A DNA stretch of 64,000 nucleotides from sequence record PX915678.1. The stretch is one strand, 5' to 3'. The notes beneath the pieces were generated by a model that was not told the DNA's origin, did not search any database, and saw only the letters and a list, made by a program, of their open reading frames with translations. Source of the DNA: a phage. Of this stretch, positions 2,783 to 45,512 are shown piece by piece. Position 1 is the stretch's first letter, and every line of letters starts with the position of its first letter. The position numbers and the translations under genes are program-made.

Positions 2783-3346
2783 TTACCATTCCAATGCTAG
2801 TTTTTTGAGTTGTTTCTGTTCTTTTACATTCTTAGTCACTTCTTTTAAAAAATCATCCGTGACTAAACCTTTTAGTTCTTTTAATACTAAAGGAAGTTTT
2901 CCATTTTTAGTAAGAATTGATTTATAGTTAATTGCATCATTTGTATTAACTTGATACCGCTTAGCAAGTAACTTAATAATCAATACTTCAGTAGAATCTT
3001 CGACCAGTTTTGCCCATTTACCATATCTTTTACCACGAGGAACAGCAGCCATCAGATAATTAAAATGGGCTTCATCGCTTAAACCTGATCCAATTAAATT
3101 CATAGCATATACAGCTGGCATGCATTCAGGAAATTGTGATAATGCATTCTCAACCATGTATTTTGAATAATCTTTTTGAGCAATAGAGCATTTAGTTTTA
3201 TTATTAATAGCTCCAATTATTTCAAAAAATTCATTTTCAGCTTTTTCCTTAAAAGAATCAGCAGCAGATTGGACAGCTGTCCAATCTTTTGAATACCAAG
3301 CAACTTGATGCTCGTTTAATTGAATATCATCTTCAAATAAGCTCAT
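2783..3346 (-). CDS. 62: clamp-loader small subunit gp62
   Basis: 187-aa ORF between regA and 44, size and synteny as T4 gp62. Confidence 0.85.
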
Positions 3347-34762: not shown

Positions 34763-35124
34763 TACAAGCTCTCAGTAAAGGTACGAGCGATAACGTCGCG
34801 CTGCTGTTCCGGTGTCAGAGAGTTAAAGCGAACTGCATAACCGGATACACGGATGGTCAGCTGCGGATATTTTTCCGGATGCTTAACTGCATCTTCCAGA
34901 GTTTCACGACGCAGAACGTTAACGTTCAGGTGTTGACCACCTTCAATTTTGACTGTAGGCTGTGATTCAATTTCAATTTCACGGGTGTGCAAACCGTAGA
35001 AAATTTCTGGGTCTACAAAAGAGTCCTCTTTAAAGGTTTTAGAAACAATAATTCGTGCTTGAATACCATCTTCAAAATAAATAGTACCTTTATGTGTGCC
35101 TTCAAGAATTTGATATGCTTTCAT
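34762..35124 (-). CDS. autonomous glycyl-radical cofactor (GrcA/YfiD-like)
   Basis: 120-aa ORF ending ...[60 protein letters not shown], with glycyl-radical motif RVSGYAV. Confidence 0.8.
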
Positions 35125-35130
35125 ATAACC

Positions 35131-35460
35131 TCAATTAGAAAATAAATTTATCCAAGACTGTTCTTTAATTAAAAATGGCTCAGAATCATATGCCATTAAA
35201 CTTTGGGTGATTAGTCCTTTAAAAGGTCCATCAATAAATTCCATGGTAAAATATGGAATTTTATTCATTAATCTTGCATTAGGAGCAGTACACAAAACTC
35301 TGCATCCTTTGAATACACCTTTTTGTAATTTGTATTGCTTAGGATAAAATTCGCTCAAGACGTTGTTATTTGCCAAAATTTCAAAATGATTCACCAATTT
35401 ATTTTTAATAGTTTTTGGCGAAAAATAAAGATATTCGAAAAGCTGTGTGTCTGTCATCAT
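35131..35460 (-). CDS. hypothetical protein
   Basis: ORF likely starting at MMTDTQLFEYL (ATGA overlap with upstream stop). Confidence 0.45.
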   Translation of the reverse strand: MMTDTQLFEYLYFSPKTIKNKLVNHFEILANNNVLSEFYPKQYKLQKGVFKGCRVLCTAPNARLMNKIPYFTMEFIDGPFKGLITQSLMAYDSEPFLIKEQSWINLFSN

Positions 35461-35996
35461 TGCATTCCGATTACGAAAAACTGCGGACGAGTAATACCAC
35501 CAGTGCAACATTTACTATTGCAACAGTATTGTACAGTTTCAATATGAATATCGTAAATTTTATCCATATCGGGAGATTTAACCGGCTCATCGATTATATA
35601 CAAAATCCGCGAAAGCGATAAACCTCTGAACTTGCTGCCTCTATTACCAACAAAACTACGGACAGAATCAGTAAATAAGCGGAATCGAATATCGTCACTA
35701 GAATAACGAGAAAATTCTTTTTTAATGTGGCCTGCAGAAATTTTAGCGTAAGCTGAAGTATTAGAAAGAACAATAACTGTTCCACCATCATACAGCCAAT
35801 TAGCAGCAAAGTTAGTCACAGCAGTTGATTTACCGGATTGACGTCCACCATCTAGTCGAAGTGTACAATATTGTTTAAGCAAGTCTTCAAATGGTGGAAT
35901 ATAATCGTTTTTACAAATTTCTTCTACTCTAGCATCAGAATGGTGTGTAAAAGCATTCATCAGGGATAGATAAGGACCAGTTAAAAATGTTCTCAT
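35457..35996 (-). CDS. small P-loop NTPase-like protein
   Basis: ORF from MRTFLTGPYL; Walker A-like GGRQSGKST and hydrophobic-D motif VIVLSN...YIIDEP. Confidence 0.45.
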   Translation of the reverse strand: MRTFLTGPYLSLMNAFTHHSDARVEEICKNDYIPPFEDLLKQYCTLRLDGGRQSGKSTAVTNFAANWLYDGGTVIVLSNTSAYAKISAGHIKKEFSRYSSDDIRFRLFTDSVRSFVGNRGSKFRGLSLSRILYIIDEPVKSPDMDKIYDIHIETVQYCCNSKCCTGGITRPQFFVIGMQ

Positions 35997-36149
35997 TTTA
36001 TTCTCTCTAAATTTGGGCCATTCCATGGCGCATGAATTGTCCATTTCTGTATTTACCCATTACCGCACTTGGGCTCGACCTTATTACAGGTTGGCGGGAA
36101 TCCCTCATAGAATCATGAGGTCCAGCTTGTTCCCATATTTCTTATTTGC

Positions 36150-36623
36150 TTATTTGAATGATTTGACGTACTGAATAGAGCCTTTGCTATTCACGAAAGC
36201 GATTTTACCATTTTTGTTATACATGGTAGCAGTACGCTGATAACCATAAGTTTGTTTACCAGATTGATAACCAACTAATGCGAAATTATCTTCACCCATT
36301 TTATTCTGCTTAGCGCGGATACGTTCATGACCGTGTGCCATAAGAACCTTAGCGTCGCCAGTTGCAATGGATCTACGAGTTTTTTCATCTTCAACTGTAT
36401 TAACAAAATCGTCAAATGAATCAAATTTAGCATGAGATTTATTATACAGTTTTCCATCTACTGCATAATTATATCCCTGTACATCCATCTCAACTTCTGT
36501 ACCATCATCCAATACAGCAGTGATTTTTTGACCTTTTTTAAATTTCAAAAGATCAGTAAAAGATTCAGCGATAATTTGAGAATTAATAGCTGCTTCAGTG
36601 ATAAATTCTTGATATGTTTTCAT
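36150..36623 (-). CDS. internal protein (IP) family member with capsid-targeting N-terminus
   Basis: 157-aa ORF beginning MKTYQEFITEAAINS (CTS-like signature ending in E); late promoter TATAAATA 35 nt upstream. Confidence 0.65.
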   Translation of the reverse strand: MKTYQEFITEAAINSQIIAESFTDLLKFKKGQKITAVLDDGTEVEMDVQGYNYAVDGKLYNKSHAKFDSFDDFVNTVEDEKTRRSIATGDAKVLMAHGHERIRAKQNKMGEDNFALVGYQSGKQTYGYQRTATMYNKNGKIAFVNSKGSIQYVKSFK

Positions 36624-36632
36624 GTGTTTCCT

Positions 36633-37049
36633 TTAAATGTAAATAGTTTTACCGTAGTATTTATACCAGTATGGCTTCATTAAAATTTTTTCATCGAGTC
36701 GTTGTTGACTCAACTTAATAGCTGATTTGCATGGATTATAATCATTTTTCCATTCTGCTGGAATATCGCTGATGTCAGGAACTTCAGTATCTTTTATACT
36801 AAACCCACGTTTTAAGCATTCCGTTATAATGTCTGATTGACGCTTTCGCAAAAATTCTAACTTATCGTAAAAGAACGTGACATGACCAGAACCTAAAATA
36901 AACTCGGAAGATATTTTAAAATCTTTAACCCGCTTACCATTTGCAACATGTTTACGAACTATACCAAAAACACGTGGCAATTCACGGTATTCTGCGATTA
37001 AATGTTGATCAGCAAGTTCAGATACTAAAGTCAAATTAATACGAGTCAT
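36633..37049 (-). CDS. denV: endonuclease V (pyrimidine-dimer DNA glycosylase)
   Basis: From ATG at 37049 (SD GGAGGG): [29 protein letters not shown]...[14 protein letters not shown], 138 aa, recognised as T4 DenV. Confidence 0.92.
36658..36665 (-). promoter_or_regulatory. late promoter (TATAAATA) for IP gene
   Basis: mRNA-sense GGTATAAATACTACGG upstream of ORF 36150-36623. Confidence 0.55.
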
Positions 37050-37054
37050 TTTAT

Positions 37055-37106
37055 CCCTCCAAGTAACTGTGAATAATACTATCACAATTCTAGGAGAAAG
37101 TAAACA
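37055..37106 (-). promoter_or_regulatory. early-type promoter upstream of denV
   Basis: mRNA-sense AAAGTTGTTTACTTTCTCCTAGAATTGTGATAGTATTATTCAC. Confidence 0.45.
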
Positions 37107-37109
37107 ACT

Positions 37110-37640
<531 letters not shown>

Positions 37641-38096
37641 TTAAAAGAGGCTGTTCATTATTCGGTAAAGTGAAGGACCCATCACATATTGCCACTGAGT
37701 ACGAGGAATAAGGGCAAAAGCATCCATCTCTGGAATCATAACACCATCTTTATTTTCAAAATAAGACTCGCAATGGCAATTTCTAAACATCTCATGCTCT
37801 ACTGGAATCGTATAATAAAATAACTGCAAGTCTTTATTACTAGAATATTTAAATACACCTAGGTCTTCTAGAAGGTCTGAATTATAATCGATAAAACCAG
37901 TCTCTTCTGAGCATTCTCTTTTTGCAGCTTCCAGTGCATTCAAATCAAAACTTTCTACACGGCCCTTTGGAATATCCCAGCGATGTGCCATCATTCCAGG
38001 TTTACGAGAACCAGTAACTCGTCCCATAAATAAATCTTTATCTTCTGTCATAAAGATAATACCAGCTGATAGTGTTTTCATTTTAATTTCCTGCAT
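37641..38096 (-). CDS. nudE: Nudix hydrolase
   Basis: 151-aa ORF with Nudix box GRVESFDLNALEAAKRECSEETGF; position next to e. Confidence 0.8.
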   Translation of the reverse strand: MQEIKMKTLSAGIIFMTEDKDLFMGRVTGSRKPGMMAHRWDIPKGRVESFDLNALEAAKRECSEETGFIDYNSDLLEDLGVFKYSSNKDLQLFYYTIPVEHEMFRNCHCESYFENKDGVMIPEMDAFALIPRTQWQYVMGPSLYRIMNSLF

Positions 38097-45209: not shown

Positions 45210-45260
45210 GTAATAGTATCACAACTAAAACCCTATGTAAACAACTTTGTGAAATTATTT
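45210..45260 (-). promoter_or_regulatory. T4 early-type promoter
   Basis: mRNA-sense AAATAATTTCACAAAGTTGTTTACATAGGGTTTTAGTTGTGATACTATTACC. Confidence 0.6.
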
Positions 45261-45512
45261 TAAATCTTCTAATCGTTTCTTCATCTTAGAACCGTTCTTA
45301 GCGATTTCGCCTGCATCTGAGCATAATGCTAAAAGTGCTTTAACTTTAGTTTGGTCTCCTTTAAAAGATGAAGGATCGACTGCAGCAGCAAGTTCTTTAA
45401 TACGAGAGAAAAGACGCTCAGCTTCAGCTAAAGCCATTCCAAGCTTTACTTCCATACCGTGGGAAGATTCAGTGATAGTAGTTTTTGTAGCAAACTCTTT
45501 GAAAGTTTTCAT
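45255..45512 (-). CDS. internal protein, ipI-locus (capsid-targeting N-terminus)
   Basis: 85-aa ORF MKTFKEFATKTTITESSHG...; location adjacent to 57B as for T4 ipI. Confidence 0.6.
   Translation of the reverse strand: MKTFKEFATKTTITESSHGMEVKLGMALAEAERLFSRIKELAAAVDPSSFKGDQTKVKALLALCSDAGEIAKNGSKMKKRLEDLK

Follow-up and report, generated by a model that had tools for sequence, protein, structure and literature searches.

Internal-protein gene ip4 and its surroundings at the polymorphic e/denV/vs.8 locus of a T4-related phage

Which internal protein (IP) is encoded by the ORF that follows denV in this phage genome, and how does the locus that carries it relate to that of T4? The ORF occupies positions 36150..36623 on the minus strand of the 64,000-nucleotide stretch of phage DNA that we analysed (sequence record PX915678.1), which we call the window. 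Its 157-aa product, starting MKTYQEFITEAAINS..., had first been described, in an earlier note made from the sequence, as a single divergent member of the IP family lying after denV in a gene order different from that of T4. We assign the ORF to ip4 (ipIV), a named T-even IP gene situated in the polymorphic e/denV/vs.8 IP locus. Together with the account of a replaced module given below, we put the probability of this reading at about 85%.

Identity of the ORF and variability of the locus

The assignment of the ip4 coding sequence (157 codons plus stop) relies on sequence identity with T2 and RB32 and on family profiles. The window protein is 100% identical in amino acid sequence to both T2 ipIV and RB32 Ip4; with Ip4 of RB51 and wV7 the identity is 99.4%. 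Its residues 1–157 align on the 158-position Pfam profile DUF7412 with an E value of 5.7e-96 (319 bits, for a cut-off of 27), and PHROG 3155, "internal virion protein", is matched over the whole length of the protein (E=6e-102). In BFVD, a library of viral protein structures, the top match is Q38388, the Ip4 protein of Enterobacteria phage K3 (99% identity, TM 0.93). The 90% cluster of Ip4 contains 114 members, with source names such as "IpIV internal head protein" and "Internal head protein 4"; the terms "internal head protein" and "internal virion protein" on these matches are database annotations, not packaging tests. As a discovery the gene carries little weight, since it is already known, named and annotated in T2, RB32, RB51 and others as a distinct member of the IP class. 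Repoila and colleagues reportedly described the polymorphism of the IP loci in 1994 and named the genes ip4 to ip12.

Between the window and T2 copies of ip4 there are 21 nucleotide differences, each of them synonymous (0 non-synonymous): ip4 is under strong purifying selection. Ip4 with at least 99% amino acid identity is encoded in 291 phage records. At 60–80% identity we found 160 records, mostly T4-like phages of Klebsiella (Jiaodavirus) and Salmonella (Gelderlandvirus). A search of 5.8 billion proteins with Ip4 returned just 14 clusters, all DUF7412 and all at least 61% identical, and no distant relatives. The Ip4 family is a narrow one, confined to T4-like phages of enterobacteria.

The earlier note had named one outcome that would overturn its reading: an alignment showing the ORF to be an orthologue of T4 ipII or ipIII, in an order that is really that of T4. 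There are grounds for such an orthology at the 5' end of the gene, as the first ~13 residues are common to Ip4, IPII, and IPIII, and the 5' nucleotide block of ip4 is common to both T4 genes. Past the leader, nothing significant is left. BLASTP finds significant similarity between Ip4 and T4 IPIII only in the first 13 residues, 10 of which are identical, and for T4 IPII it finds a weak stretch of 31% identity anchored on the leader. For the body of ip4, blastn finds nothing similar in the T4 region. Likewise, the PHROGs of ipII and ipIII differ from that of ip4 and match Ip4 weakly across the leader region, and the annotated gene orders of the two phages differ. With the likeness confined to the leader and the 5' block, we rejected orthology with ipII or ipIII, to which we leave hardly any chance.

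Around ip4, the sequence shares 99.1% identity with that of the Tequatrovirus pSs-1, a Shigella phage. All genes are on the minus strand, in the order nudE (37641-38096), e (37110-37604), denV (36633-37049), ip4, vs.8 (35457-35996), and vs.7, which comes after vs.8. The e gene encodes a lysozyme (Pfam Phage_lysozyme) and is 94.7% identical in nucleotides to T4 e. The vs.8 homologue downstream of ip4 encodes a P-loop protein, is annotated in pSs-1, and has 87% amino acid identity to T4 vs.8. In the T4 reference annotation the order is nudE, e, ipIII, ipII, denV, vs.8. The order given for T4 in the earlier note, with ipIII and ipII next to e and denV beyond them, was therefore correct, and so was the contrasting order proposed for the window, in which e is followed by denV and then by one IP-like ORF. 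The description of this ORF as a single IP gene holds for the e/denV/vs.8 locus, where ip4 is the sole one. It needs one qualification: elsewhere in the window the phage has a second IP gene, ip5 (45255-45512, minus strand), in the other IP locus, the place taken by ipI in T4.

The 2.3-kb vs.8-ip4-denV-e stretch that represents this layout is found in 304 phage records at a coverage of at least 80%, and the T4 ipIII-ipII tandem in 61 records at the same coverage. Of the many layouts known, that of the window is the most frequent in sequenced Tequatrovirus-like phages, outnumbering that of T4 in databases by about five to one, and T4 represents a minority arrangement of what is a cassette locus. 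Klebsiella phage 311F carries e, Ip4, and ipII in this order; ip4 is placed there directly after e, and Ip4 is therefore not tied to denV.

We surveyed loci around denV homologues from IMG/VR, which included 19 close relatives of T4 (L004-L022). These carry from 0 to 3 IP cassettes, on either side of denV and in many combinations, in keeping with the hypervariability of the IP locus put forward in the earlier note. One of them has no IP gene at the e/denV locus (L019), another has one IP gene after denV and is of the window type (L004), and three have one IP gene before denV (L005, L017, and L018). One IP gene before denV is combined with one or two after it in L006, L007, L009, L010, L020, and L022, and L008 carries ipIII-ipII before denV and another IP gene after. 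In L012, L013, L015, and L021, ipIII itself lies after denV, and L013 has up to three IP genes there. According to a passage of PMC12373910 citing Repoila et al. 1994, two T-even loci are highly polymorphic for IP genes. PMC3012670 also lists that study among its references. This polymorphism has been in the literature since 1994, and with a named gene in the commonest known layout the present finding is real but ordinary.

The e-proximal part of the locus deserves a separate mention. In many of the loci L005-L022 (at positions ~3140-3170), the IP gene next to e begins right at, or within, the last part of the e coding sequence (...GCATATGAAAAC...). The overlap suggests translational coupling of an IP to lysozyme in these relatives. 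In the window, the slot where the first IP gene of the relatives adjoins e holds no gene.

Boundaries of the module exchanged relative to T4

A blastn comparison delimits the part of the locus that differs from T4. Positions 35000-36138 are 92.9% identical to T4 (L002 2296-3443), and this alignment ends exactly at the start of what comes after the denV stop codon in T4 (GGGAACAA...). The body of ip4, at 36139-36591, has no T4 counterpart. It is followed by a short block, at 36592-36651, that is 91.7% identical to the 5' end and upstream region of T4 ipII and 91.5% identical to those of ipIII. The denV region (36640-37053) is 73.8% identical to T4, and from 37060 onward, beginning in the hairpin after e, identity to T4 rises again to 93.8%.

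The denV gene encodes endonuclease V, a pyrimidine-dimer glycosylase (Pfam Pyr_excise; PHROG 1183), and, according to the alignment with T4, it truly starts at the ATG that encodes M13 in the listed ORF. It is a diverged allele, with 78% amino acid and 73.6% nucleotide identity to T4 denV, whereas its neighbours e, nudE, vs.8, and vs.7 are 91–95% identical to T4 in nucleotides. To go by this far greater divergence, denV was exchanged along with the rest of a mosaic module. Among the related loci, denV is 95–99% identical to the window copy in two and 76–79% identical in most others. As read from these alignments, the ipIII-ipII-denV module of T4 is exchanged in the window for a foreign module made of a diverged denV and ip4. 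The blastn map gives limits to the replacement or rearrangement of the IP complement that had been proposed for this phage.

The junctions of the module fall in the conserved IP 5' block and in the intergenic hairpin after e. Only 60 nt, with no gene among them, separate e from denV. The hairpin there, the left junction (37045..37108, minus strand), folds as RNA with a predicted energy of -21.1 kcal/mol (z = -4.1 compared with shuffled sequences). T4 has related hairpins after e, after ipIII, and after ipII, at places that match the module junctions. The 3' arm of the window hairpin pairs with the denV ribosome-binding site GGAGGG and with the start codon, and the hairpin could mask the translation of denV from read-through transcripts. 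A similar control by a hairpin is known for T4 e.

The conserved IP 5' block with its leader codons (36592..36651, minus strand), recognized by blastn to T4 ipII and ipIII, contains the sequence ATTTACATTTAAAGGAAACAyATGAAAACATATCAAGAATTTAT, common to ip4, ipII, and ipIII. It includes the ribosome-binding site of ip4, AAGGA (36629-36633, minus strand), which overlaps the stop codon of denV (36633-36635, minus strand). The last codons and the stop of the denV allele of the window are supplied by this block, and the C-terminus of the protein is ...GKTIYI where that of T4 is ...GKAIYA. The block is a likely site of recombination. At the other end of ip4, a short spacer after the stop codon (36139..36149, minus strand) forms the right junction, and from 36138 towards lower positions the window is collinear with the T4 sequence that follows the denV stop. 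The window and T2 have this downstream junction with the vs.8 leader in common.

T2 (L003 2414-3110) aligns continuously with the window except for 36639-37059, and denV is cleanly absent in T2 between the hairpin after e and the IP 5' block. At the level of this alignment, T2 is the layout of the window minus denV. This fits the classical lack of v gene function in T2, and the breakpoint map offers a simple structural account of how T2 came to be without denV and endonuclease V.

A further observation concerns vs.8, which is annotated in T4 as a 219-aa protein. Its 5' part survives here as a separate 33-aa ORF (36007-36108, minus strand) that is in another frame than vs.8 and ends in a stop codon, within the region 35997-36108. 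The conserved part of vs.8 begins at an internal ATG at 35996, and T2 vs.8 has the same 5' interruption as the window. The N-terminal extension of vs.8 annotated in T4 is either not real or dispensable.

Leader, predicted processing sites, and putative promoter of ip4

Codons 1–10 of ip4 (36594..36623, minus strand) encode MKTYQEFITE, a predicted capsid targeting sequence similar to the leader of T4 IPIII. It ends with a motif of the prohead protease gp21, I-T-E followed by an alanine after Glu10, which conforms to the pattern of a hydrophobic residue, any residue, and Glu, then a small residue. Among 12 Ip4 homologues, M1, K2, F7, and E10 are invariant. The same motif, ITE then A, is found at the processing site of T4 IPI at residue 19: the IPI precursor is 95 aa long with ITE at residues 17–19, and its mature form has 76 aa (PMC3012670). 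From its leader, Ip4 is likely cut at Glu10 by the prohead protease.

Codons 18–20 (36564..36572, minus strand) encode I-A-E, followed by S, and might form a second protease site. E20 is invariant, every homologue having I, L, or M at P3 and S or A at P1'. In an hhalign comparison of the Ip4 family with T4 IPI, 47 N-terminal columns are aligned with a probability of 57%, and E20 is placed opposite E19 of IPI. A second cut after Glu20 is possible on the basis of this conservation. As for remote homology between Ip4 and IPI, we did not retain it, the probability of 57% being partly driven by the leader and at most suggestive. The alignment of Ip4 with IPI (L076 1092-1379) also includes KGQ-K..L.DGTEV opposite KGREGK..LVDGEEI. 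This is a hint, too weak for a claim, of common ancestry between some IP cassettes past the leader.

Mature Ip4 would be a protein of ~16.5 kDa with a pI of 9.1 and 22 Lys and Arg among 147 residues. Mature T4 IPII (pI 9.6) and IPIII (pI 9.7) are basic like Ip4. Members of the IP family are defined by their leader, MKTYQEFIxE with ~10–11 conserved residues, by the protease motif, by their placement in a polymorphic locus flanked by conserved nucleotide blocks with expression signals, by late transcription, and by presence in the mature head and injection with the DNA (Repoila et al. 1994; Mullaney and Black 1996). At the sequence level ip4 presents the first three features, and the others are predicted for it from T4 biology. 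An AlphaFold2 model built with 12 homologues is of moderate confidence (pLDDT 72, pTM 0.65) and predicts two helices at the N-terminus, then a beta-hairpin, three more helices, and a beta-sheet at the C-terminus. Foldseek found no match to this model in the PDB at E<=0.001, and a comparison of the same type with the viral structure library returned only Ip4 itself. A sequence search of the PDB gave chance-level results, the best being a designed repeat protein (E=6e-4) with no passing stretch. In comparisons of mature Ip4 with IPI*, IPII, and IPIII, we found no sequence or fold relationship.

The earlier note had also attributed to ip4 a late promoter of its own, embedded in the 3' end of denV. 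The motif is indeed present: TATAAATA, the T4 late-promoter consensus, lies at 36665..36658 on the minus strand, inside the denV codons for Tyr-Lys-Tyr and 34 nt upstream of the ip4 ATG. The window contains nine copies of TATAAATA on the minus strand and four on the plus strand for ~7–8 expected per strand from base composition, a count at chance expectation that gives no statistical support to TATAAATA as the ip4 promoter. In the same way, scans for sigma-70 promoters and terminators gave background levels. In addition, no exact TATAAATA is found within 75 nt of T2 ip4 or of ~40 other IP genes of related loci.

These data would also be expected if TATAAATA were a by-product of the codons of the conserved denV peptide W-Y-K-Y, which nearly forces the motif, ip4 being transcribed by read-through from the two late promoters that precede e, or from others located upstream. 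The same denV codons read TACAAATA in T4 and TATAAACA in other relatives, and the contact between e and the first IP gene in many relatives also agrees with read-through. Two TATAAATA motifs upstream of e, at 37638 and 37625 (minus strand), are a possible source of read-through late transcripts for ip4. Conversely, the spacing of 34 nt to the ATG is typical, the stable hairpin between e and denV could impede read-through, and TATAAATA is kept upstream of ip4 in the near-identical independent locus L004. Moreover, T4 late promoters require little more than TATAAATA. We give the by-product explanation somewhat less than an even chance, and TATAAATA inside denV is, by its sequence and position, a plausible promoter of ip4.

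Possible role of Ip4 and comparison with known internal proteins

A scheme for the role of Ip4 can be drawn from what is established for T4 (Mullaney and Black 1996; PMC3012670; PMC9391042; PMC12373910). The gene would be expressed late, from TATAAATA in denV and/or by read-through from the late promoters of e, and the leader would dock the precursor in the scaffolding core of the prohead. There, gp21 would cleave after Glu10, with a possible second cut after Glu20. The mature protein, which is basic, would stay in the head with the DNA before being injected, and would then inhibit a host defence nuclease. In T4, ~1000 internal-protein molecules per head stay with the DNA and are injected (PMC3012670).

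The anti-restriction role ascribed to the IP class in the earlier note is experimentally supported for T4 Ip1, Ip2, and Ip3, each of which blocks one particular type IV restriction enzyme of the GmrSD type and does not protect against the others' targets (PMC12373910). T4 IPI* is an injected inhibitor of GmrS/GmrD of E. coli CT596, and IPII and IPIII inhibit the GmrSD enzymes of ECOR21 and ECOR17, respectively. IPIII is active in the cytoplasm without its leader (PMC9391042). Analogy with these T4 proteins makes a specific injected anti-defence role the most likely one for Ip4. We consider it an even bet that Ip4 stoichiometrically inhibits a single, specific nuclease of host defence that attacks glucosyl-hmC DNA, as T4 Ip1, Ip2, and Ip3 each do for one GmrSD variant.

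Several points count against this overall account. Silas et al. assayed ip4-10 on GmrSD variants that act against T-even phages, with no reproducible inhibition (PMC12373910, section 10, Supplementary Fig. 9). Beyond this GmrSD screen, we found no experiment on Ip4 itself in the literature. The near-total conservation of Ip4 over ~290 phages is not as a residue-level arms race would predict. To these points are added a model with a pLDDT of 72 and no informative fold relative, and a late-promoter motif that does not stand out statistically and that T2 ip4 lacks.

Ip4 might instead be a generic basic IP, a DNA counter-ion or an aid to packaging or ejection that fills the core in phages without IPII and IPIII and has no specific target. 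Its pI and its content in Lys and Arg would suit this function, as IP lysines contact DNA phosphates in T4 heads (PMC3012670). The absence of a target in the GmrSD screen, the extreme conservation of the sequence, and the presence of just two IP genes in the window point in the same direction. However, many invariant residues of the family are non-basic, such as those of GYNY, GKLYNK, GEDNFAL, and GYQ, and suggest a specific folded surface rather than a polycation. All three T4 IPs have one specific target each (PMC12373910), and the relative L019 dispenses with any IP gene at the e/denV locus. We regard a generic function as unlikely.

The negative result with the common enterobacterial GmrSD groups could also mean that Ip4 is an injected inhibitor of a defence other than GmrSD, such as a further modification-dependent nuclease or a first-response system that is not a nuclease. 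The lack of fold or sequence likeness to IPI* past the N-terminal ~48 residues is compatible with this. However, a GmrSD subtype missed by the screen is equally likely, as no more than five extra GmrSD systems were active in it and the family is vastly diverse (PMC12373910), and there is no positive evidence for another target. Such an inhibitor seems to us rather improbable.

We tentatively suggest, as a doubtful extension, that Ip4 neutralizes a widespread enterobacterial defence outside the GmrSD classes tested, its near-invariance reflecting a conserved target surface. Should this be true and Ip4 also be cut twice, after Glu10 and after Glu20, Ser21 would be the first residue of the mature inhibitor. 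Ip4 is the commonest IP at the e/denV locus, with ~290 near-identical copies and ~160 diverged ones in T4-like phages of Klebsiella and Salmonella. As injected inhibitors of type IV restriction, IPs help to set host range (PMC12373910), and Ip4, as the most widespread IP at the locus, is a reasonable candidate for the next target hunt.

Compared with known systems, Ip4 resembles T4 IPI/IPI* by a leader of the MKT(F/Y)xEF type and by the motif ITE followed by A, IPI* being a small mature protein delivered with the DNA. It differs from it by its locus, IPI being encoded at the other IP locus, by the size of the mature form, 137–147 aa for Ip4 instead of 76 aa for IPI*, and by having no fold match in the PDB. 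Ip5 of RB15, which is also encoded in the window, is like Ip4 the product of an already named cassette, and is a small protein with a leader MKTFKEF..ITE followed by S. With 85 aa, it is encoded at a different locus and its mature sequence is unrelated to that of Ip4. T4 IPII and IPIII share with Ip4 the polymorphic locus, the leader, and the 5' block, and their mature forms are also basic. By contrast, their mature sequences are unrelated to Ip4, and their genes are placed in T4 between e and denV, a slot that is empty in the window, where the single IP gene follows denV. T2 carries ip4 directly after e, without denV and without an upstream TATAAATA, whereas in the window denV separates e from ip4 and ip4 is preceded by this motif. 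The Ip4/IpIV proteins of T2, K3, RB32, RB51, wV7, and PST are the same protein as Ip4 of the window, with the same length and the same leader.
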